DNA of 64,000 nucleotides from a virus. Positions 30,252-50,993 of this stretch are shown here, one piece after another (positions within the stretch are counted from its first letter, which is position 1; each line of letters starts with the position of its first letter). Made by a program: the position numbers and the translations under genes. The stretch lies in IMG/VR virus record IMGVR_UViG_3300022752_000024, positions 64,001 to 128,000 of that record; one strand, written 5' to 3'. The notes under the pieces were generated by a model. That model was not told where the DNA came from and did no database searches. It saw only the letters and a list, made by a program, of their open reading frames with translations.

Positions 30252-30778
30252 GTGTTTGTATAAAATATGTGATTACCAATTTGCATTACAACATGCTTTT
30301 TATTCCAACCAGGACTAACATACTTTGCATGGTAAAACATTGCTTGAGTTCTAGCTAGTTTAACATGAGCGATAGGTTGTGTCAATGCTTTCATTGCAAT
30401 ATATTTGGATTCTTCCCAAAGATAGGCATTCTTTGCCGCAGGAACAGTCGTACATGTCCAACTAAACTGACAGACACTTTTGCCATTATAATTAGTTTTT
30501 TGATATACCACACCACATATGTTTACTGGATATTTACCTGAATTAGTTCGATTGATTGTCACCTGTGCTACTGCAAGCTTTCCTTCAAAAGATTCAGATC
30601 CTGCTTCATAGTAAATATTCTTAGCTAAACATTCCATTTCTTTGCTCATGTGTACTTGAATATCAGTATTGATATCTTGTCTCACTTGATATGGAAACGA
30701 ATAGATAAGAATTACAGTAAAAAATAATATAGTAGCTATAAGCAGGTTGACACTTGTGAATATTTTATTTTTAAGCAT
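30248..30778 (-). CDS. Cell wall hydrolase (SleB / Hydrolase_2 family)
   Basis: CLAKNIYYEA, AVAQVTINR, CQFSW, FYHA, IGNHIFY; N-terminal hydrophobic anchor. Confidence 0.9.
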   Translation of the reverse strand: MLKNKIFTSVNLLIATILFFTVILIYSFPYQVRQDINTDIQVHMSKEMECLAKNIYYEAGSESFEGKLAVAQVTINRTNSGKYPVNICGVVYQKTNYNGKSVCQFSWTCTTVPAAKNAYLWEESKYIAMKALTQPIAHVKLARTQAMFYHAKYVSPGWNKKHVVMQIGNHIFYTNT

Positions 30779-30799
30779 TACTTCTCCTTAATAGTTAGG

Positions 30800-30817
30800 G
30801 AGAGACCGAAGTCTCTC
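30800..30817 (-). other. cUUCGg tetraloop hairpin in the hydrolase leader
   Basis: GAGAGAC-TTCG-GTCTCTC on the minus strand, just upstream of the AAGGAG RBS. Confidence 0.7.
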
Positions 30818-30957
30818 TTGTCCCAATCAGGTAGACTTTTTGCTAGTAGTCTTTTCTGGTATGATATTTGAAACGAATCCGTTTAAGGATTGTGTTGTGT
30901 GTAAAAAGTGTGGTAGTGAGTTTATTTCTCAGGTACTCACTCGACCTGTGATATTAT

Positions 30958-31032
30958 TTAGCGATTTGCAATATACATGGAAATTTCAAAACCAAAACGC
31001 ATATCTTGTGCTGAAGGTGTAGTCCATTTCAT
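30958..31032 (-). CDS. pqqA: Pyrroloquinoline quinone precursor peptide PqqA (24 aa, not in ORF track)
   Basis: Hand translation MKWTTPSAQDMRFGFEISMYIANR* matches the PqqA pattern W-x-x-P-x4-(L/M)R-x-GFE-x-x-MY, with the ExxxY core. Strong RBS AAGGAGA upstream. Confidence 0.92.
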   Translation of the reverse strand: MKWTTPSAQDMRFGFEISMYIANR

Positions 31033-31119
31033 ATCATTCTCCTTGATTTGTCATAGCAAAATACTACGACTATAATTATATATGCATAGTGTAACACGAA
31101 TGTAATAATTAAAACCATT

Positions 31120-31156
31120 AAAATGCAAGGTGATTGGGTAATAAGGACACCTTGCG
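31120..31156 (-). terminator. Terminator / 3' hairpin of tmRNA
   Basis: GCAAGGTG...CACCTTGC followed by ATTTT on the minus strand. Confidence 0.65.
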
Positions 31157-31430
31157 AAACCCCAAGAGAATTAAGCCGCTAGGCGTTCATCTCCAAAATA
31201 TGCATCGTTTGCATTTACTTGTTTTGCTCGGATTACGTCCGTCGCCTTTCGTGTTGCCTTCTCTATTATCTCACCCTGTCGAAACCAGGTCATCCCCATC
31301 AGAAGTACACAATCCCCGCTAGAGCCCTAAGAGGTTTCTTTCATCTAGGACAACTATGCACTTCTGGTGGAGATGGAGGGAATCGAACCCTCGTCCAGAA
31401 TGCCTTCACTTTGAAGGAATTACAACAATT
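31124..31430 (-). ncRNA. ssrA: Circularly permuted (two-piece) tmRNA; outer ends approximate
   Basis: Minus strand order: T-arm GAGGGTTCGATTCCCTC plus CATCTCCACCA (CCA ends 31365); a 67-nt self-pairing intervening segment; 5' acceptor strand GGGGATG..TTCGAC from 31297; tag ANDAYFGDERLAA* (31212-31171). G3:U70 alanine determinant present. Confidence 0.93.
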
Positions 31431-31531
31431 CTAATTCTTGTATTTTATTTATTCATTGTAGCTATACAATAACCAAATACAAATGGATATCAAACAACCA
31501 ATAGCTAACCCGATACAGAATCCAGTTATGT

Positions 31532-31560
31532 ATTGTATCATTCTTTATTGATTATGTCAA
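31532..31560 (-). promoter_or_regulatory. Sigma70-type promoter upstream of tmRNA
   Basis: TTGACA-17 nt-TACAAT. Confidence 0.7.
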
Positions 31561-31563
31561 TGC

Positions 31564-32229
31564 TTATTTCGGTGTATTTTGGCGATAATACGTAATTACA
31601 TCAATTAAACCATCAATATGATCTTTGACTTTTTCTTTGAAGATTATTGGAGCAGAATCTTTTACTGCCATAATGATAACCAGATTATCAATTGGAGTAC
31701 CAATTAATTCTTCATACATCGAAGCATAAGCAGTAGTTTGCCAAAAATAGTCTAAAACATCTTCTTTTCTTTTTACTTTACTAGATGTTTTAAAGTCTAT
31801 TACAGAAAGTTCACCTTCATACTCTGCTATACAGTCAACACGACCTGCCATACCTAAAGTCTTAGACCACAATGCTTGTTCTTGATAATGAATGTTATCT
31901 ATGTTGTCTAAGAAAGGTTTAATAGAGAGAAAATACTCAACAGCATCAGGCATGATGCCTCTCATATAATATGGTTCATTGTTGAGATAATTCTCACAGA
32001 TAGTATGAACATTGGTACCTCTAGATGTAGCTTGTTTGGAGATTTTATTGGCTTCTTCTTCGCCAACTCTTGCTCTCCACTCCATGATAGCTTTTTTCTT
32101 TTTGGCTCCTACTACAGTGGTTACTGATGGCAACTTAGTACCATCAGGTAACTTGTAATATCTTTTCCCATCAGGAAAAGTTTCTGATTTTAAATCTTCT
32201 AGTTGTTTTGGTGGGCAATATGTAAACAT
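31564..32229 (-). CDS. PD-(D/E)XK exonuclease
   Basis: LPSVTTV, RGTNVH, AGRVDCIAEYEGELSVIDFKTS, QTTAYA. Confidence 0.88.
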   Translation of the reverse strand: MFTYCPPKQLEDLKSETFPDGKRYYKLPDGTKLPSVTTVVGAKKKKAIMEWRARVGEEEANKISKQATSRGTNVHTICENYLNNEPYYMRGIMPDAVEYFLSIKPFLDNIDNIHYQEQALWSKTLGMAGRVDCIAEYEGELSVIDFKTSSKVKRKEDVLDYFWQTTAYASMYEELIGTPIDNLVIIMAVKDSAPIIFKEKVKDHIDGLIDVITYYRQNTPK

Positions 32230-41218: not shown

Positions 41219-41247
41219 ATTGTAACATATTCTGGATGATATGTCAA
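41219..41247 (-). promoter_or_regulatory. Sigma70-type early promoter
   Basis: TTGACA-17 nt-TACAAT. Confidence 0.75.
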
Positions 41248-41250
41248 GAG

Positions 41251-42417
41251 TTAAAATGGAATTTCGCCAGTTGGTGGTGCTACTGGTGCTACTGGTACCA
41301 CTTCAGGCTCATTCGCTTTTATATCAATCTTAGTGTATAAATCTAAGAATGACGTTTTGGTTTCTGCATCAAAGCGGGCAACACATAGTTCAATCGCTTT
41401 CATACGATCACCAAAAATCTTATATGCTTTCGCAATATGGACAAGACGGCGAGTAGAGATAATTTCATCTACGGCATTCTCATCAAATGATTTACGAATA
41501 ACATCTGCCCACTGGACGAGCAGTTCAACGAATTCTTTATCTTCAATAAGAGGAGTAAGAATTTTCTTTTCTGTTTTTGTATCGGGAAATTCTTGTTCTA
41601 CTGTAATTGGAAATCTTTCTAAAAAAGCAGAATCTAGAATTTGAGCCAAATATTTTCCTTCGTCACTTCCTTGACCTTTGGTATTTGCAGTAGCAATCAC
41701 ATTGAAGCCAGGTGCAGGATACACCATCTCGCCATTCTTCTTATTAAAGTATGGCTTACCTTCTAGAATACCTTGCAAACACATTAGCTTGTTAGAGCCA
41801 CGGTCTACCTCATCAATCAGTAAAATCGCACCTCGCTTCATTGCAAGAATAACAGGACCGTCACGGTTAACCACGTTACCATCAACAAGTGTAGGACCGC
41901 CAAGTAAGTCGTTTTCATCGGTCTCAATAGAAATATTGACACGGATACATTCACGTTTTAGCGTGGCGCATACTTGCTCAACCATCAAGGTCTTACCGTT
42001 ACCTGATAGACCAGTAACGAACACAGGATAGAATTCTTTTGAAGAAATGATATTAGTCAAATCTTTGAAAAATCCAAACGGTACATAATCAGGATATTTC
42101 ACAGGAACAGAAGGTTCCGACTCATCAATCAGTTTAGGTTGTTTGAAAGCCAAGACCTGTGCAGCCATTTCAACGGTCTCGGTTTCTCTTACCTCGATAG
42201 GTGCGGAAGTTTTTACTTGCGGTTTAGCAGAACCAGCTACCTCAGGTAATTGATATTGACCACGACCTGCACGATATTCCTTGCGTGATACAAACCAAAA
42301 TGGATAAGGTACATCCTTTTCTGTTACCACACGGTCAACCTGGTCACGGTTTAGAATCGCACCTTCGCCATATAATTCAGCCGCGGCTTCTACAAAAGCA
42401 ATAGCATTTTTATTCAT
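41251..42417 (-). CDS. cobS: CobS/MoxR-like AAA+ ATPase
   Basis: GLSGNGKT, LLIDEVD, ATANTKGQG, AFLERF, ISTRRLVHI. Confidence 0.85.
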   Translation of the reverse strand: MNKNAIAFVEAAAELYGEGAILNRDQVDRVVTEKDVPYPFWFVSRKEYRAGRGQYQLPEVAGSAKPQVKTSAPIEVRETETVEMAAQVLAFKQPKLIDESEPSVPVKYPDYVPFGFFKDLTNIISSKEFYPVFVTGLSGNGKTLMVEQVCATLKRECIRVNISIETDENDLLGGPTLVDGNVVNRDGPVILAMKRGAILLIDEVDRGSNKLMCLQGILEGKPYFNKKNGEMVYPAPGFNVIATANTKGQGSDEGKYLAQILDSAFLERFPITVEQEFPDTKTEKKILTPLIEDKEFVELLVQWADVIRKSFDENAVDEIISTRRLVHIAKAYKIFGDRMKAIELCVARFDAETKTSFLDLYTKIDIKANEPEVVPVAPVAPPTGEIPF

Positions 42418-42427
42418 TGTTACCTCA

Positions 42428-42610
42428 TTAAAGATTTTCATTTTGTTTATACAAAGTATAAAATTCAGAATCATCCACGTAATTCATTAATTTCATTATA
42501 GCAATTACCTCATCAACTGACATACCCATGATGGTCGCCACCTGTTCTGGTGTTTTACCGTCACCAAGCATTTCAACAATTGTAATACATTGTTCCTTCA
42601 TTTTACCCAT
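42428..42610 (-). CDS. Small HTH-like protein
   Basis: MLGDGKTPEQVATIMGMSVDEV. Confidence 0.6.
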   Translation of the reverse strand: MGKMKEQCITIVEMLGDGKTPEQVATIMGMSVDEVIAIMKLMNYVDDSEFYTLYKQNENL

Positions 42611-42729
42611 AATCTTATCCTATTAAAATCTTACCTAAAAAGTAGCCACACAACAAGAATCCAAGGATTATTATCAGACCAACAAGCTCTGCTAGAAAAA
42701 TTGTAATTATTTTAATAAATTTCATTTTA

Positions 42730-42960
42730 TTAATTTTCTAAAAACACTTGGGTTGTGGCTTTGCGAAGGATAGCCATGGTTTCATCATAATCCTTTTTTG
42801 AGAGTTTTTCAGCAAGGATTCCTGCTAAGGTTGTTTCATAGTATCCTGTGGCATACGCATATCCACCACGTTTTTGATACGTCACGGCAGAGAATCCACG
42901 CAGGACAGCATCAGCCTCGGCTCGGCGTTGCGATTTAACAACAAGATTTGTCTTTTTCAT
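42730..42960 (-). CDS. Hypothetical early protein
   Basis: ORF directly behind the promoter at 42990-43018. Confidence 0.7.
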   Translation of the reverse strand: MKKTNLVVKSQRRAEADAVLRGFSAVTYQKRGGYAYATGYYETTLAGILAEKLSKKDYDETMAILRKATTQVFLEN

Positions 42961-43149
42961 AATCAGCCTTTCTCTATCAGTATGGCTCTATTATGAGGCA
43001 TTCCTGCCCAATTGTCAAGGGTTATTTTTGTTGCTTTTTTGCAACATATCTGCCGGAGCCTTGAAAACCTAGCATCCACGCGGGACGTATACAGGCTAGG
43101 AAGGGTTGTAGGAGGTTTTCTGGTAGTGGTCCACATGGAGATATTAGCC

Positions 43150-43179
43150 AAAAAAAGAGCCTCTTATACGGAGGCTCTG
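43150..43179 (-). terminator. Rho-independent terminator
   Basis: AGAGCCTC..GAGGCTCT followed by a T run on the minus strand. Confidence 0.8.
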
Positions 43180-43209
43180 GAAATTATCATTTTGACAATT
43201 ATTGGATGG

Positions 43210-43455
43210 TTAATTAAAAAATTCCTGATTCATTTCATGGGTCTTAATTTCCTTTTCCGTATATTCTACGGAATGCCATTCTCCGTCAGGAGTTTGGGCA
43301 CGTACAATATCAAAGGAATATATGGATCCCATTTCAGTAAAAAAGCCCTCGACCTCTGCAAAACGGGTTACAGTCTTTTTATTGTCTAGCATGGTACCAA
43401 ACCATCCATTACGGAGTTGGATACGCATTCCTTTTTTAATTTCAGCGGTTTTCAT
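43210..43455 (-). CDS. Hypothetical early protein
   Basis: ORF track; AGGAGA RBS. Confidence 0.75.
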   Translation of the reverse strand: MKTAEIKKGMRIQLRNGWFGTMLDNKKTVTRFAEVEGFFTEMGSIYSFDIVRAQTPDGEWHSVEYTEKEIKTHEMNQEFFN

Positions 43456-43489
43456 TTTTTCTCCTAGTTCAATGTAAGTACATTATAAA

Positions 43490-44323
43490 TTAGCCGCATA
43501 GTGCAAATTCCGCTAATTGTTTCCAATTGTCATTAGGGTTCGCTTTACGAATTTTGGTGCATTGTATAAGTGAACGAAGGGACAGTTCACGAACATAGTC
43601 CTTAACATTATCAATAAGGTTAAGGGCATCGAGTTTCATAGCACGAGGAAACTCAGGCATAAACTCTGGTGCATCAACAAGGAAACGCATCCGGTCAACT
43701 TTTTGTTGGGTAGTCATTGATAGGTCAACAACCATAGAACGGCTAAGGATCGCTTGGTCAATCTGGCTTGATGATAGGTTACTGATAAAGATAACACGAC
43801 CTTTGAATTCAAAAGATTGAGGAAGGTCCTCATCACGGATATCCGCACGGTAAGTGATAATACGGCGAGAATAAGAATCCAACGCAGCCTTCAATAAATT
43901 CAATGATACAGGATCCCGCAGGATAGAATCTGTATCATCAAAAACTAGGACGCCATCTTTGTTTTCGTATAATGTACGGTACAGGCCTTTGGCAGTCGAA
44001 TAGCCTTTTACAACCACATAATTCTTTTTGCCTACAGGTGCACCGATTTCAGCAAGGGACATATCCTTCATGCCTGCTTGCCGCAAGGATTGAGTAACAG
44101 TAAAGGACTTGCCAAGACCGCCAGGACCTGTAACGATAACGGAAGCCTGATCGCCTTTGGCTAGCATGGTCACCATATCTGATACAAAACCAAAACGCTC
44201 ATTAATTGAAAAACGTGATTCTACAACAGGAGCAGGTTCTGTATTGAATTTGGTAACAGTAACAGGACCATTTTGTTGGTTCTTGGTCTTACGAAAACCT
44301 GCACGTGGAACGCCTCTTGGCAT
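43490..44323 (-). CDS. P-loop / AAA-type ATPase
   Basis: GPGGLGKS Walker A, LVFDD Walker B, IFISN, AILSRS. Confidence 0.8.
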   Translation of the reverse strand: MPRGVPRAGFRKTKNQQNGPVTVTKFNTEPAPVVESRFSINERFGFVSDMVTMLAKGDQASVIVTGPGGLGKSFTVTQSLRQAGMKDMSLAEIGAPVGKKNYVVVKGYSTAKGLYRTLYENKDGVLVFDDTDSILRDPVSLNLLKAALDSYSRRIITYRADIRDEDLPQSFEFKGRVIFISNLSSSQIDQAILSRSMVVDLSMTTQQKVDRMRFLVDAPEFMPEFPRAMKLDALNLIDNVKDYVRELSLRSLIQCTKIRKANPNDNWKQLAEFALCG

Positions 44324-44476
44324 ATTATGCTCCTTTGAGTTAATTAATCAGTATGGATACAGTATAGGGTATCCATGCCGAATTGTCAAGGGTTTTATCC
44401 TCTTATTCCTATTAAAAATAAGAGAGTTGTTGCAATAATTGCAATTATTCCTGTTATTATCACAATTGCAAGATCC

Positions 44477-44677
44477 TCACGCATAGTGCCTCTCTATAAT
44501 CTCAGGACGATAAGAACCCACAAAGGCAATCAATTCCTTTGGTGATAGTGAATCCAGTTTTTCTTGGATAGCGTTATAAGCAAAATCTTCCAATTGTTCG
44601 GGTGTCATGCTAATAACCCTCTGCCACGCATATTCCGTCTGTATGCGGTCCCTACGGTCGTTAGTGAGTCTTAACAT
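44477..44677 (-). CDS. Hypothetical protein
   Basis: ORF track; GGAGG RBS. Confidence 0.65.
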   Translation of the reverse strand: MLRLTNDRRDRIQTEYAWQRVISMTPEQLEDFAYNAIQEKLDSLSPKELIAFVGSYRPEIIERHYA

Positions 44678-45141
44678 TACATTTCCTCCGTTTTTTCATC
44701 AAGTGCCAATTCACTCACTACGTCAGAGAATTCGGTATCATCATAGGAAGCAAAAGTCCACTGGTTGTTTTGAAACAGGTAACAATACTCTGCTCCACGG
44801 TTATAGTATTCCTCAAGAAAATCAGCTTCGGACTTAAAAATTCGTGCGGTTGCATCGAATTCACCACGGTCACGACCATAAAAGGTTGACCAATCTTTTG
44901 CATTGGCTTCCTCATACGCCTCACGCTCACCCTCAAAAGGTGAGAAAGGACGTTTTTGACCAATCACTTTTCCTAGTGACGAAATATCACCCAAAACCAA
45001 CAGGTCAAGGATATTCTCTTCCGTGTTATAACTTTCAACTAGGGTCTGACCAACACCTTGCAGATAACCATCCCAATGACAATAAACTGCCATAATAACA
45101 GTATCAGCCAATTTGATACCAATAGCGGAACGAGTAGCCAT
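44677..45141 (-). CDS. Conserved hypothetical phage protein
   Basis: MATRSAIG..YCHWDGY..GDISSL..FYGRDRGE..EYCYLF. Confidence 0.8.
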   Translation of the reverse strand: MATRSAIGIKLADTVIMAVYCHWDGYLQGVGQTLVESYNTEENILDLLVLGDISSLGKVIGQKRPFSPFEGEREAYEEANAKDWSTFYGRDRGEFDATARIFKSEADFLEEYYNRGAEYCYLFQNNQWTFASYDDTEFSDVVSELALDEKTEEM

Positions 45142-45273
45142 TATTTTTTCTCCATAATATAATCAATCACAATTTTTGATTCTGAATAATCAGAATATTC
45201 CAAGGCAGCCTCAATCATTTGCTCATGCAGGTCATAAAGGTCTTCCAGCATGGCTTCAATAATTTGACGTTTC

Positions 45274-45603
45274 CTATACATACGTTTTTTCCTTCATCAG
45301 GTCGGAATACTCAATAGCCGTTTCAGGGTATAGAATTTCGCCATCAAAATCCAACTGGCTTTGCTCAAACCAGGACAGATAGGTATCAGGTTCAATGGTA
45401 AAATATTCCACGTATTCCTGGGACATATCGCTATTATGGCAAAGGATTTTTTCAACGTGGTCAACGATAGGCTGATAGGATGCCTTATCATTGTAAATAG
45501 GCACGTTTAGAATCTTATGGGATGACCCACCTTTCATTTTCCAATAAGGTTCGTCAGGTGAGCCATAATTCTCGGTGTACTGCGTGTGGATGACTAGCAT
45601 CAT
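45274..45603 (-). CDS. Conserved hypothetical phage protein
   Basis: TQYTENYG..YWKMKGG; behind a cassette promoter. Confidence 0.75.
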   Translation of the reverse strand: MMLVIHTQYTENYGSPDEPYWKMKGGSSHKILNVPIYNDKASYQPIVDHVEKILCHNSDMSQEYVEYFTIEPDTYLSWFEQSQLDFDGEILYPETAIEYSDLMKEKTYV

Positions 45604-45808
45604 AAAAGTCTCCTATCAATCAATTTATATGACTATTATAAGGCATCCATGCCGAATTGTCAAGGGTTTTACCAACCTTCCATCCACATTTCAATCTTGT
45701 CATAATAGTATTCCGCAAGGTCTGCTATAAATGACAACTGTTTCAATAATAGCAACGGAAACAGGATTGTCAATCGGATAAGCCATGTTAGGGTCCAATT
45801 ATACAATT

Positions 45809-46492
45809 TTAGACTCCTAAAAAATTCGTAGGTAAGTCGGCAAAGGTTGCATTGGTACCATAAAGGTTTGCCCGCTGCCAAGACCACAGGTCGGCTATTT
45901 TATTATAGGTAGGACCAAACACGTATCCCGTAGCCTCTACACAGGACTGCCAGCCACCTGGCACGTTTTTACAGACAATTTTCATAATTTATACCTCATC
46001 ACAAAAGTCAACAATTTCGGTAAGTTTAATTGCAGGGTGTGCAAAATCATACCACATTTCATTTACCAAGTCGGTTACATCGGCATCCTCAGATACCCAA
46101 ACACGCACCACAACCTCGATGGATTTTAGTTTATCCTTGTCCAGTTTATCCTTGTCCATTAGTATACCTCTCTTTCGCGGATGTCATAGGTAAAGTAATG
46201 ATTTCCATCATCCTTTTCCATCTCTTTAATATAATTAATGGCATCATCATACTTGGCAAATACTCTCAAAACGGTATCTCCCTCATATTCATATATTTCC
46301 ACTACAATAAATACTTTTTGCATTTTCTTACCTCATTGTTGCTAATCTTACCCATGCACCATCCACAGGTAATCTCAAGGTTTCGGACTCATCCAAAGAA
46401 AAGGTGTCAAAATTATCATCATCCACCCATCCGTCGGTGTTACTCCAGAGAAAATCTGGATCAATTGTGTTTTGAATAACAAAGCGGTTCAT
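45809..46492 (-). other. Run of four short CDSs (54-58 aa) missed by the ORF track
   Basis: 46492-46328 MNRFVIQ..; 46323-46159 MQKVFIV..; 46159-45989 MDKDKLDKDKL..; 45985-45809 MKIVCKN..; each has a GAGG or AGGAG RBS. Confidence 0.65.
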
Positions 46493-46588
46493 AATTAAAA
46501 CTCCTATATTTCATCATCAATCAATATGGATACAGTATAAGGCATCCATGCCGAATTGTCAAGGGTTATTCCACTGGTTAGTGACCAC

Positions 46589-46798
46589 TTAGATTACAAA
46601 GTCTACCACGTAGGTATCCATTTCAATTTTGCTAATCTTGCACTTAAAATCAAATGCCTGCATCAAATTGGAAAAGACCTTGCGGGATACGGACATCGGA
46701 GCGGTGTAGAATAATGATCCATTGTACACTTCAAAGTCCGTTACCTTCAGTCCTGCATTGGTACACACCTCGGACACTACCTGATTAAAATTATCCAT
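46589..46798 (-). CDS. Hypothetical protein, paralog of 48143-48355
   Basis: YNGSLFYTAPMSVSRKVFSNLM. Confidence 0.75.
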   Translation of the reverse strand: MDNFNQVVSEVCTNAGLKVTDFEVYNGSLFYTAPMSVSRKVFSNLMQAFDFKCKISKIEMDTYVVDFVI

Positions 46799-46799
46799 G

Positions 46800-46997
46800 T
46801 TATTCAGTCTCCCCAAATAGGTACGATATATCACGTTGGTCCAATTCCATCATTAATTCCTCATCAGCCATCGCACGATAACCTTTGAAGCCTGATTCTA
46901 GAATTGACCTCAATAATTCCACGCCATAGTCGGAATTCATAACGGTATCAAAATCATTATCCACTAGGGTTTCAATAGCTTTTTCACGGTCGAACAT
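46800..46997 (-). CDS. Hypothetical protein, paralog of 48693-48902
   Basis: REKAIETL..ILESGFKGY..EL..EL. Confidence 0.75.
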   Translation of the reverse strand: MFDREKAIETLVDNDFDTVMNSDYGVELLRSILESGFKGYRAMADEELMMELDQRDISYLFGETE

Positions 46998-47046
46998 TTT
47001 TTACCTCTTATAGTTAAGAATTAATTAAGTAGCCTTTAAGCAGCCT

Positions 47047-47796
47047 TTACGCTGCCGCCAACATAATTGTAGGATATTTCACAAAACCAGTGGTGTCTTT
47101 TTTCGCTTTACCTTTTGCATATAAGCCAACTACCACACCTTTAGGATCAAGGAATCGCAGGTCAGAATCATCACCATTAAAGACAGGACGACCTAGATAC
47201 GATTCTGGCATGGGTTCAGTCTTTTTGATACCAAAGACCACTGCCACATTGTAACCTTGCTCAATAGCCTTAATAACATCAGAATCATTACCATCGGCGG
47301 CTGAAAAGGTCAAGTGGTAGTTAGGAATATGCTTAATCTTACGACCAAGGATTTTGGTATAGTCATAAAATTGTACCTCAGGGAATGCAAAGAAAATGTT
47401 AGGATACGTCACACCATTACGGACTACCTCATACTTTTCCCATGCGATATCACTAGTACCATTAGGACGATAAACAGGAATCAAACCTAAACGGATAGAT
47501 TGTTTAAGACCTAATTCGATATCTGCAACCATTAAACGCATGAATTCCTCACGGTTTTCAAAGAATAAACGGGTCTTGCGTTTCCGTGCTTCCTGTATGA
47601 CGTTAGTGGTCTCGCCACGTTTCATCATACCGCCACGACCAGCCATATTGAGGCAGGCTAGTGTACAGCCTTCAGTCCGCATGGCGCAGGTTTCATAACC
47701 AGAAAGGTTAGCAGGAGCAAGGTGTAGAATGTAGGTATTGAAACCTTGCTTAGTGCCTTTGAGGACTTTGGGATTACCCGTAGATAATAATTTCAT
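47047..47796 (-). CDS. Conserved Cys-motif phage protein (GP88-like)
   Basis: LAPA..C-x6-C-x3-CL..AGRG, RPNGTSD, QFYDYTK, NYHLTFS, GDDSDLRFLD. Confidence 0.65.
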   Translation of the reverse strand: MKLLSTGNPKVLKGTKQGFNTYILHLAPANLSGYETCAMRTEGCTLACLNMAGRGGMMKRGETTNVIQEARKRKTRLFFENREEFMRLMVADIELGLKQSIRLGLIPVYRPNGTSDIAWEKYEVVRNGVTYPNIFFAFPEVQFYDYTKILGRKIKHIPNYHLTFSAADGNDSDVIKAIEQGYNVAVVFGIKKTEPMPESYLGRPVFNGDDSDLRFLDPKGVVVGLYAKGKAKKDTTGFVKYPTIMLAAA

Positions 47797-47858
47797 AATT
47801 TGTTTGCTTTCGTCAATTAATCACTATGGATACATTCTACAGGTAATCCTGCCAATTG

Positions 47859-48125
47859 TCAAGCGTTTTTGGCAAAATCTTTTCGAATGCCAGTCACCGT
47901 TTTCCGTGGCATGGAAACGGTAATATTATAATAACCTTTAGACTCCATGACCCTCCGAATATTGCCTGAAATAGTCCACCGCTGAAGGTGTTGCTCATCT
48001 GTCAAGTCCTCCAATATTCCACAGAGGTGTTCTAATTTGGGTTCCAATGTAAAAGGGATAACGTCAAGGACCTTGCCGTCACGGACAATTGTTTTCTTTT
48101 TAGCAACCACAATTTCGTTTTTCAT
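47859..48125 (-). CDS. Hypothetical protein
   Basis: ORF track; stop overlaps the next -35 box. Confidence 0.65.
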   Translation of the reverse strand: MKNEIVVAKKKTIVRDGKVLDVIPFTLEPKLEHLCGILEDLTDEQHLQRWTISGNIRRVMESKGYYNITVSMPRKTVTGIRKDFAKNA

Positions 48126-48142
48126 TTTACTATCCTTTACAG

Positions 48143-48355
48143 TTAAGCAACAAAATCCACGGCATAGTAATCCATTTCAATTCTGCTAATTTTGCAGCGG
48201 CCATTAAACTCCTTCATTAGGTTGGAGAATATCTTACGGGACACTGATAACGGAGCCGTATAGAATAAGGTTCCGTTGTATATTTCATAATCAGCAGGAG
48301 CCAGGTACTCGCCACATGTTTTATTGACAACGGTTTCAAAAAATGAATTTTTCAT
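48143..48355 (-). CDS. Hypothetical protein, paralog of 46589-46798
   Basis: YNGTLFYTAPLSVSRKIFSNLM. Confidence 0.75.
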   Translation of the reverse strand: MKNSFFETVVNKTCGEYLAPADYEIYNGTLFYTAPLSVSRKIFSNLMKEFNGRCKISRIEMDYYAVDFVA

Positions 48356-48378
48356 GTTAATGTGTACTCACTTAAAAA

Positions 48379-48615
48379 TTAATCTTCAGACAATTCCACG
48401 TCCTCATCGGTATAGCCTTCCACGTAGAAATTGCCATCATCAGCCGCAGAATTAACAAAATTCAAAAAATCCTCACGGTATGCAATAGGATCCATTTCCT
48501 TCAGTATAGCAGATGGTGCGAATTCAAGATAGCCCATGCGGAACGGCTCATTGCATTCGTCCAACAATTCGTCAAACATTTCCATGGCTTCGGATTCAGT
48601 GTAGATGGTAGTCAT
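48379..48615 (-). CDS. Acidic hypothetical protein
   Basis: FDELLDE..ILKEMDPIAYR; behind a cassette promoter. Confidence 0.75.
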   Translation of the reverse strand: MTTIYTESEAMEMFDELLDECNEPFRMGYLEFAPSAILKEMDPIAYREDFLNFVNSAADDGNFYVEGYTDEDVELSED

Positions 48616-48692
48616 ATAATCTCCTATCAATTAATCAGTGTATGGATACAGTATAACGGCAAAGGTGCCAATTGTCAAGGGCTTTGCCAAGA

Positions 48693-48902
48693 TTATCCTT
48701 CATACAATTCGAGTTTAAAACTATCATCAAACCGTTCTGCCAATTCTGTTATCAATTCAGAATTGGTATAATTCTGATAACCACGGAACCCTGTTCTAAG
48801 AATATCCTCAAGGTACCAGGTGTCGTTATTGGAAAGAAAATCTGTTACGGTATTAACATCATCCCGAATCAGGGTCTCAATGGCTTTTTCACGGTTAATC
48901 AT
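48693..48902 (-). CDS. Hypothetical protein, paralog of 46800-46997
   Basis: REKAIETL..ILRTGFRGY..EL..EL. Confidence 0.75.
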   Translation of the reverse strand: MINREKAIETLIRDDVNTVTDFLSNNDTWYLEDILRTGFRGYQNYTNSELITELAERFDDSFKLELYEG

Positions 48903-48969
48903 ATAATCTCCTATCAATTAATCACTATGGATACAGTATAGCGGAATGGCAGTGAATTGTCAAGGGTTA

Positions 48970-49332
48970 TCCAAGGAAAAAATGAAAATAAACCGTAGGA
49001 AATACTGTTATCCAAAAGATAACCGCAGGATATTCTATTGGTTTTGGGTTCCTGATAGTTTTTGGCTATCGGGCGCATAGGGTCTCGCGGATCCTCTTGG
49101 TAGATAGGTCTTAATTACATCCACCGAGCAAACCTTTCAGAATACTGCCAGGAACCTTCAGAAAGGTCTCAGAGGGTCCCTAAGGGTATGCGGAATGGCT
49201 AGCATAGTATACCGAAAAAGCCTCGGAGAAACCCGTTTAAACGGCAAAGTTTACTCTGGGACAACTAATTATCGGAATGATAACATCATGCCCAGGAGTG
49301 GATTAGGATACCAGATTTGCTGCATCACCATA
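48970..49332 (-). ncRNA. Candidate structured non-coding RNA / cis-acting DNA element
   Basis: About 360 nt with no ORF of 60 aa or more, directly behind a consensus promoter (49338-49366), with at least 7 hairpins. Confidence 0.4.
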
Positions 49333-49384
49333 GAATCATTATAGGGTATTTCAAAGGAATTGTCAAGGGTTTTGCGAGGAAATA

Positions 49385-49417
49385 AAAAAAATCCTCTAGT
49401 TTTTCCACTAGAGGATT
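49385..49417 (-). terminator. Rho-independent terminator
   Basis: AATCCTCTAGT-ggaaaa-ACTAGAGGATT followed by a T run on the minus strand. Confidence 0.85.
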
Positions 49418-49436
49418 CTTATCAAGTTACTAAGGC

Positions 49437-49736
49437 TTATGCGGTTGCAAACTTAGTAACAACGGCTTTCGAAGGTTTCTTGGCAGCCTTGATGGCTTTG
49501 GTGCCAACTTTTGGTGCTTTCATGGCTGCCAGCTTGGCTTCCAGCTGGGCGATTCGAGCAGCCTTTTTGGCTTCACGGTCTTGGGCTTTCAAGGTCTTTT
49601 GGATAGCCTTGGTGGCTTTTTGAGTAGCCTTGAATTCCTTTTCATCGGCTTGGGCGGACTTCAATTGAACCTTCAAGGATTTGAGGGTTGCGGTAGCGGC
49701 AGCGATATCTGCCTTAAGGAGTTGGATCTTAGTCAT
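49437..49736 (-). CDS. Lys/Ala-rich basic coiled-coil protein
   Basis: 99 aa, highly K/A-rich; has its own promoter and terminator. Confidence 0.75.
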   Translation of the reverse strand: MTKIQLLKADIAAATATLKSLKVQLKSAQADEKEFKATQKATKAIQKTLKAQDREAKKAARIAQLEAKLAAMKAPKVGTKAIKAAKKPSKAVVTKFATA

Positions 49737-49928
49737 ATGTTACCTTTCGAAAAAATTAATCAATTTGTTTACTCAATGGATACAGTATAGCGGTTTTGCT
49801 GCCAATTGTCAAGGGTTATTTCAATTAATCCTTGCGGTCAAATAGTGCGTCCAGGATAATGTATACACTACCTGCAATAGTTGCAATAATAAAAACGATC
49901 TCTAGAGTTTCCATACCTTACCTCTTAA

Positions 49929-50060
49929 TTAAATGCAAAGGTTAATCAGATTACAAGTTACCTCAACGATCCCACTACCTACAATTGTCGAAATAGCAAG
50001 GACTGCCTTCGAGAATACTGCCCCGGTGATCAGGCTTGCGAGAATGATAAGGATTTGCAT
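49929..50060 (-). CDS. Small hydrophobic protein
   Basis: MQILIILASLITGAVF.. behind the promoter at 50098-50126. Confidence 0.5.
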   Translation of the reverse strand: MQILIILASLITGAVFSKAVLAISTIVGSGIVEVTCNLINLCI

Positions 50061-50993
50061 AGTGTGGTTTTTCTTTCGTTTTTTCAGCGTATACACTATT
50101 ATAGCGGATTCGGTGCCAATTGTCAAGGGTTATCGAGGGTTATTGGTGTTGTAGGAAAACAACGCTGGTGGGATATACTCTGAGGATTCTTTGTGACTCT
50201 GCGGTCAGGTTTTGGTGGGCTTAGTGAAATTAAAAAAAAGTTAATATTCTCAAACCCCTAGACCCGTAACTGAAAAACTCCTAGCAAAACCCGTGGATTC
50301 CAAAATTTTTTTCGGAGCAGAATCCACGGTAAATCCAAAATAAAACCAAACTTATGAGGTACCAAGAGGGGTTGAGTTAATTTACTCAGTCTAACTTAAA
50401 ATGCTTAAATGGTGCATCGAGAATATTGGAGAATTCCTAGAAGATACCGCAGATACTACACTACACATACACATCTACTCTATTTGCACTCACAACCATC
50501 TCACGTTGTTTCTTTTGATATTCTTCAAGTTTCTCTTTCTTTAAGAGACTCTCAAGACGATCCATTTGTTTTCTATAATCTTCAATACTCACTTCTTTAC
50601 GGAGTAATTGTAGACTGTGATTGCCATTAACGATTTTCATAGGAGTAGTAGGAATAGATTAGAACCAGTGCAGGCTTCTCTTATAGTTGAATTCATTGAT
50701 GATTCTGTCAATGTCAGCAGGAGACTTAGGATTACGTGAGGAGATATATTGATCAATTTCGTTCATTTGTTTATTAGCGAACCATTGAATAATCTTTGTT
50801 AACATTTTACGACCTTTCTGTATTTGTTTGTATACAGTTATATAGAAAGAAAATGTTGCAATTGCACATATACGTTTTATTTTATTTCATGATAACAGTT
50901 ATTTTAACTTCTCTATCAGCTTTTCAGAATGAATTAATCGTGCTTCTAGATATTCGATATACTCTTTCATTAGTTGAATTTGTTCTTGGTCGT

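Follow-up and report, generated by a model that had tools for sequence, protein, structure and literature searches.

The DNA analysed here, from an uncultured phage, carries an ssrA gene of circularly permuted layout (31430-31124, minus strand), called by ARAGORN and by two Rfam models. It is probably a working phage gene that would add ribosome rescue, together with host SmpB, during infection. The window, by which we mean the whole 64,000-nt stretch analysed, comprises bases 64001-128000 of an IMG/VR record of a T4-like phage (142,881 bp, 35% G+C, estimated 86% complete). T4-type genes lie nearby (gp32, gp59, a PD-(D/E)XK nuclease, PhoH and a baseplate protein), and the record is clearly viral.

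To the sequence reading on which the original prediction rested we added the ARAGORN and Rfam searches that it had proposed. ARAGORN called one RNA gene in the whole window, a permuted tmRNA at 31457-31080 (minus strand) with the tag ANDAYFGDERLAA*. The Rfam model tmRNA_permuted (RF04321) matched 31427-31171 over model positions 1-213 of 213 with 153.4 bits (E = 1.7e-30; gathering score 47), and beta_tmRNA (RF01850) matched 31478-31097 with 148 bits (E = 2.1e-45; gathering score 84). Beta was the best of the three subtype models, with alpha at 56.3 and cyano at 45.2 bits (gathering scores 50 and 70). The predicted precursor fold had a z-score of -3.5. Judged by the E-values, the fold z-score and the pairing relative to slid controls (below), the match to a permuted tmRNA is far beyond chance. 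The parts of the gene, and the site upstream of it, are as follows.

31365-31430, minus strand: acceptor piece, 66 nt (Rfam match, strand reading, covariation in relatives)
31427-31423, 31417-31413 and 31402-31396, minus strand: 5' strands of the long-range helices, in the acceptor piece
31392-31376, minus strand: T arm, GAGGG-TTCGATT-CCCTC
31375-31369, minus strand: 3' acceptor strand, CATCTCC
31368-31365, minus strand: encoded ACCA, with the CCA end at 31365
31298-31364, minus strand: intervening spacer, 67 nt, closed by a stem
31124-31297, minus strand: coding piece, about 175 nt, 3' end approximate (Rfam match, strand reading, covariation)
31297-31291, minus strand: 5' acceptor strand, GGGGATG, starting at G 31297
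Within the coding piece, minus strand: TLD element CCUGGUUUCGACAGGG and pseudoknot-1 region
31171-31212, minus strand: tag frame ANDAYFGDERLAA with stop; resume codon GCA at 31212-31210, stop TAA at 31173-31171
31125-31155, minus strand: 3' hairpin with an 8-bp stem and a conserved loop with CCUUAUUACCCAA; matches the hairpin of the beta_tmRNA model and covaries
31532-31560, minus strand: promoter-like site of sigma-70 type, TTGACA-17-TACAAT plus a TG extension, about 100 nt ahead of the gene (11/12 matches)

The gene order is permuted, with the T arm, the 3' acceptor strand and CCA preceding the 5' acceptor strand and the tag frame. G3 (31295) stands opposite U 31371, giving the G3.U70 pair of a tRNA-Ala-like acceptor stem. 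On the strand reading, the ends of the spacer pair over 12 bp, 2 of them G.U, and the first two of these pairs draw on C and A from the terminal CCA. The loop of the 3' hairpin probably pairs with UUGGGG at 31165-31160 as a pseudoknot. Most of what the original prediction had claimed was borne out by these results and by the comparison with relatives: a phage-borne, circularly permuted two-piece tmRNA; an acceptor piece (T arm plus acceptor strand) ahead of GGGGATG, with the CCA end at 31365 and G1 at 31297; a 67-nt segment with pairing ends between them, exactly as described (31364-31298); a 13-residue tag ending in LAA, translated as stated from 31212-31171; and a hairpin after the tag. Its limits, 31124-31430, coincide exactly with the block conserved in relatives.

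Selection on the RNA structure was assessed in ten distinct related phage sequences, with the structure taken from the Rfam alignment. Here 98.9% of cells pair, compared with 42-53% when the partners are slid as a control. Sixteen base pairs have changes on both sides, in the T stem, the acceptor stem, the closing stem of the spacer and the 3' hairpin, with compensatory changes in two pairs of the T stem, three of the acceptor stem and five of the eight in the 3' hairpin. The G3.U70 pair (U-G) is invariant in all ten sequences, while three neighbouring pairs change on both sides. The three long-range helices are invariant across the ten, so that covariation neither supports nor contradicts them.

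The tag frame differs from those of 13-codon relatives (tags ANDAFYGEERLAA and ANDAFYGEDRLAA) by synonymous codon changes that equal or exceed replacements in number, and the replacements among relatives are conservative (Y/F, D/E). The 13-codon tags and the 10-codon tags of other relatives are exactly 9 nt apart in length. Together, the synonymous changes, the conservative swaps and the 9-nt difference point to a tag under coding constraint. At 13 residues it is indeed longer than usual, as had been proposed; close relatives and the Rhodocyclales have 10-residue tags.

An exact-pattern scan of IMG/VR for relatives returned 17 contigs, 14 of them of low G+C (35-40%). The local gene order in the window (PhoH ... 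PD-(D/E)XK nuclease, tmRNA, cell-wall hydrolase, gp59, gp32) is unchanged in 13 of these 14, those in which ARAGORN calls the gene; the fourteenth, L109, ends within the tmRNA gene. Proteins of the contigs that share this slot are 33-63% identical to those of the window, with the exception of L107 (48-98%), whose tmRNA gene is 99% identical to the window's. The gene is thus shown to be vertically retained in a fixed genomic slot within the phage clade. Deposited phages yielded no close copy among the records visible to the searches, from which those very near the window may have been masked: megablast with the 3-kb surroundings gave no match, and sensitive blastn with the gene gave T-arm-sized matches and Mosig only.

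The search for smpB, also proposed with the original prediction, found no SmpB (PF01668) in the 142,881-bp, 86%-complete record, nor in five relatives, one of them a complete 172-kb genome. Given its absence from the record and from the complete relative, host SmpB must be used, and we assume that the RNA is compatible with it. This absence is no argument against membership of the tmRNA family, as all published phage tmRNAs take this partner from the host.

The sigma-70 promoter predicted upstream was upheld as a site, TTGACA-17-TACAAT at 31560-31532, but not as a conserved feature: upstream of AATTGTTGTA the sequence is unrelated even in the 99%-identical L107, and in other relatives an ORF abuts the tmRNA gene. 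Sites of this promoter class occur 34 times as strong matches in the genome, 30 of them on the minus strand and many in the early region, which makes early transcription of the tmRNA plausible; the 31560-31532 site is likely to be the early promoter of the precursor. A family of closely similar early-type promoters, AACCCTTGACAATT-N-TATA(A/C)T-GTATCCATA, has about twelve copies on this strand, at 41247-50126 and elsewhere. A leader ORF of 30 codons (31449-31541, minus strand; MIQYITGFCIGLAIGCLISICIWLLYSYNE) is hydrophobic, overlaps the -10 element and has no Pfam match; in L107 this position is taken by an unrelated ORF of 42 codons whose tail is hydrophobic.

In Caulobacter, a single precursor is cut to an acceptor and a coding piece that are held together by base pairing, and function depends on SmpB. 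From the gene described here we infer a comparable course. One precursor would be transcribed early in infection, probably from the 31560-31532 site, and its acceptor stem and T arm would fold into a tRNA-like top. The host's RNase P would then cleave on the 5' side of G 31297, and 3' trimming by the host would stop the acceptor piece at the encoded CCA (31365), releasing the 67-nt spacer hairpin and leaving the 66-nt acceptor piece paired with the coding piece (about 175 nt). The RNA would be charged by host AlaRS via G3.U70 and carried by host SmpB and EF-Tu to ribosomes that have stalled on broken mRNAs, where translation would restart at GCA 31212 and append ANDAYFGDERLAA, the LAA end of which would mark the product for ClpXP-type proteolysis. 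The likely benefit would be more ribosome rescue and amino-acid recycling in a small, streamlined host cell as the phage destroys host mRNA.

A gene for a PqqA precursor peptide (24 codons, 30958-31032, minus strand; Pfam PF08042, 31.9 bits) follows the tmRNA hairpin after 90 nt and is found among the relatives in the near-identical L107 only. Lone phage pqqA genes are known from Lake Baikal T4-like phages assigned to Methylophilaceae, a family of methylotrophs (PMC7678222). The pqqA gene, the 35% G+C and the T4-like type of the present phage match these Lake Baikal phages, and pqqA hints at such a host. Methanol dehydrogenase was considered as a further host clue and set aside, as none is present in the phage. 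If the host is a Methylophilaceae methylotroph, its own tmRNA is probably one-piece, because 36 of the 41 genomes sampled in the order have the one-piece form.

Two-piece tmRNAs of phages are already published, from Caulobacter phages, cyanophages, pelagimyophages and Melnitz, and are common; the window's gene is an ordinary further case. Buchholz et al. 2022 (PMC9004378) described those of Methylophilales phage Melnitz (MZ577097) and Pelagibacter phage Mosig (MT647606), counted 53 ARAGORN-permuted tmRNAs among 18,146 phage genomes, and proposed early transcription for the Melnitz tmRNA. Melnitz and Mosig resemble the phage studied here in being T4-like, Kyanoviridae-like phages of about 141 kb, in the slot after the PD-(D/E)XK nuclease and before gp59 and gp32, and in having the permuted layout, no smpB and an early-type promoter upstream; Mosig in addition has the spacer loop motif GTCCTAGATGAAGGAAA. 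They differ in subtype, with Melnitz scoring 106.7 with the alpha and 25 with the beta model, and Mosig 67.6 and 50.7, unlike the beta-type window. One slot therefore holds differing Rfam subtypes across related phages. The tags also differ (ANDNYVPVDYALAA in Melnitz and GEDNFALAA in Mosig versus ANDAYFGDERLAA), as do the spacers (142 nt and 44 nt versus 67 nt). In Melnitz the gene is followed by a glutamine riboswitch (RF01739) that scores 52.8 bits; the same tool gave no match in the window at E up to 10 within 30700-31700. In the 142-nt Melnitz spacer (L003, 6078-6219), an ATG follows GGAG and its frame continues into the coding piece.

The cellular counterpart is the beta-type two-piece tmRNA (Sharkady and Williams 2004, as cited in PMC9004378). 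Rhodocyclales genes that match RF01850 (Thauera, Azoarcus, Azonexus, Accumulibacter) have the same helices, TLD, pseudoknot-1 region and 3' hairpin loop as the window's gene and are 80-85% identical to it in two conserved blocks. Their tag, ANDERFALAA, is close to the ANDERYALAA of close phage relatives, while the window's has 13 residues. They score 235-313 bits with the beta model, as against 148 for the window, have about 60% G+C, as against a phage background of 35%, and have spacers of 5-47 nt that vary, as against 67 nt and conserved. Two-piece tmRNA is also known from Caulobacter crescentus (Keiler, Shapiro and Williams 2000, as cited in PMC9004378), and permuted tmRNAs occur in phiCbK-like Caulobacter phages and several Synechococcus myophages (Table S1 of PMC9004378). 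Those of Caulobacter, its phages and the cyanophages are of alpha or cyanobacterial types, unlike the window's beta. Among these, processing and tagging are proven by experiment in Caulobacter only. Mycobacteriophages of the Bxz1 group and Bacillus phage G likewise have ssrA and lack smpB, but their tmRNAs are one-piece and non-permuted, in unrelated phages and hosts (PMC4131195).

The closing stem of the spacer covaries, and the core inside it (about 31357-31312) hardly varies among 23 distinct phage sequences. Mosig and the window have a 17-nt spacer motif in common, and a scan of IMG/VR for this motif plus a CCA end returned 40 contigs; none of the 185,579 genomes of bacteria and archaea that were scanned had it, also when the spacing was left free. 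The spacer comes in two forms, one of 67 nt in genes of beta type and one of 46 nt in those of alpha type. The long form is exactly 67 nt in all copies. In its 23 sequences, the part of the spacer outside the search pattern has 95% mean pairwise identity, with 20 of 23 columns invariant, compared with 53-82% identity in the mature segments, although the set was chosen by a motif inside the spacer and module swapping could inflate this contrast. Across the same set, acceptor stems, T loops, pseudoknot regions and tags all vary. The spacer is thus better conserved than the mature RNA, and part of the selection may act on something beyond rescue. Close relatives in the window's own clade nevertheless carry unrelated spacers in which the closing stem alone is kept, so that the core is an exchangeable module, dispensable for the tmRNA.

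Several further observations concern the spacer. It was observed, in one form or the other, in the window (31298-31364, minus strand) and in L120-L156, L107, L111, L112 and L002, and the 46-nt form in alpha-type phage tmRNAs has the same loop motif, GTCCTAGATGAA(A/G)GAAA. Very long tags, of 29-31 residues, are predicted for some phage relatives that share the spacer (L133, 924-1348; L140, 4991-5422; L134, 5184-5551), and one copy lies inside an array of 23 tRNA genes. GAAACC in the spacer loop (31338-31333) is perfectly complementary to GGUUUC in the TLD (31286-31281), and in phage genes of alpha type UCCUAG in the spacer matches CUAGGA in this way at the same place; either match could be due to chance, with a probability of about 0.05 for each. 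A repeated mobile element was rejected, as the genome has no second copy and chance 11-mers only. So was a coding role: ATG AAA GAA ACC TCT TAG gives five codons with no ribosome-binding site, and the frame is inconsistent, a T/G polymorphism in relatives removing the stop.

These data bear on what the gene is for. One alternative to a working rescue RNA is that it interferes with the host, titrating SmpB or competing with host tmRNA and substituting the phage tag, so that host proteolysis, or a defence that senses trans-translation, is redirected or blunted. The phage supplies no SmpB of its own, the tags of related phages range from 10 to 31 residues, and a TLD-only RNA of mycobacteriophage DS6A inhibits tmRNA (PMC4131195), all of which would suit interference. 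However, the gene has a full mRNA-like part, a resume codon and a canonical ...LAA end under coding constraint, which fit tagging better, and the tags of most relatives hardly differ from those usual in Betaproteobacteria (ANDERYALAA, for instance); we regard interference as unlikely. Slightly less probable again is that the spacer is at least partly the selected product, its tRNA-like flanks serving as a processing cassette that frees a 67-nt hairpin RNA, for example for protein binding or for pairing with the tmRNA's own GGUUUC element. The near-invariance and fixed length of the spacer against more variable mature segments, its absence from the bacterial genomes searched, where beta-type spacers are short and variable, and, weakly, the complementarity of its loop to the TLD favour such a product. 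The unrelated spacers of close relatives speak against it, as does the motif-based choice of sequences, with which recombinational module swapping could mimic constraint.

The original prediction further suggested that the RNA may back up a host tmRNA cleaved by defence nucleases, an idea that these data neither favour nor oppose. A third alternative, that host DNA has left the gene behind as an inert remnant (a duplicated attachment site, for example, or a recent capture in decay), would be in keeping with the frequent use of ssrA as an integration site and with the ssrA fragments common in prophages (PMC9004378). It is refuted in practice, and we give it almost no weight: the gene is complete and lies in a lytic T4-like genome, has 41-47% G+C as opposed to about 60% in bacterial look-alikes, and belongs to a clade of its own (100% support) with compensatory changes, coding constraint and a fixed slot. 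A working, permuted phage ssrA that adds to ribosome rescue through host SmpB remains the reading that we favour.

To place the phage genes relative to cellular ones, bacterial genomes matching the same exact pattern were collected; almost all were Rhodocyclales. Within a sample of the same bacterial order, a one-piece tmRNA was found in 36 of 41 genomes and a strong permuted one in 4 of 151 (genome G030 is included in these tallies, and its locus L294 is excluded from all alignments and trees). A first tree placed the low-G+C phage sequences in a clade of their own, with 100% support, on a long branch. Wider maximum-likelihood trees were built from the acceptor piece joined to nucleotides 1-136 of the coding piece, with the spacer excluded (about 200 columns), for phages, Rhodocyclales, Alphaproteobacteria including Pelagibacteraceae, and 29 one-piece tmRNAs from the same order as the Rhodocyclales, circularly re-ordered and used as root; loci L016-L095 were those set against the phage loci. 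All permuted genes grouped together. The Rhodocyclales clade lay at the tip of the phage ladder, beside the window's clade (supports 92/95, 94/94, 97/90 and 100/98), in trees whose bacterial sets were gathered by exact patterns and for which mosaic phage genes can yield ladders. The acceptor piece alone and the coding piece alone gave the same nesting of the Rhodocyclales. The phage genes did not descend from within the cellular Rhodocyclales lineage in these trees: the phage clade was separate, and the bacteria stood beside or inside the phage sequences. Comparison of the flanks of two-piece and one-piece ssrA loci gave two weak synteny matches only.

These trees and the phage-only spacer suggest, tentatively, that the phage tmRNAs are one family bridging the alpha and beta types and that the Rhodocyclales gene is derived from a phage close to the window's clade, having replaced a native one-piece ssrA. 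AU tests rejected neither a single clade of all phage beta-like sequences (p = 0.26) nor one uniting Rhodocyclales two-piece with one-piece Burkholderiales genes (p = 0.29), and we therefore propose the phage origin as a possibility, at present one less likely than not. Permuted tmRNAs also occur on contigs binned as WWE3, Hydrogenedentota, Pseudomonas, Bacteroidaceae and Saccharibacteria (L067, L079, L044, L212, L193, L225 and L227); these loci are of proteobacterial or phage type, the contigs are probably mis-binned, and L067 (36% G+C, 3.7 kb) resembles phage DNA.

The beta-type RNA in a slot that holds an alpha-type one in Melnitz and Mosig makes subtype a poor guide to host history, which bears on the host-transition argument made for those phages (PMC9004378). 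If the Rhodocyclales gene did come from phage, the 'third lineage' represented by this group would not be a gene permutation of its own, and one of three supposedly independent tmRNA permutations would instead reflect the replacement, by a phage gene, of an essential bacterial gene for translation quality control. In dozens of phages no part of the gene is better conserved than the spacer, which is not found in bacteria; this points to an unrecognised function in an RNA that has been assumed to be waste.
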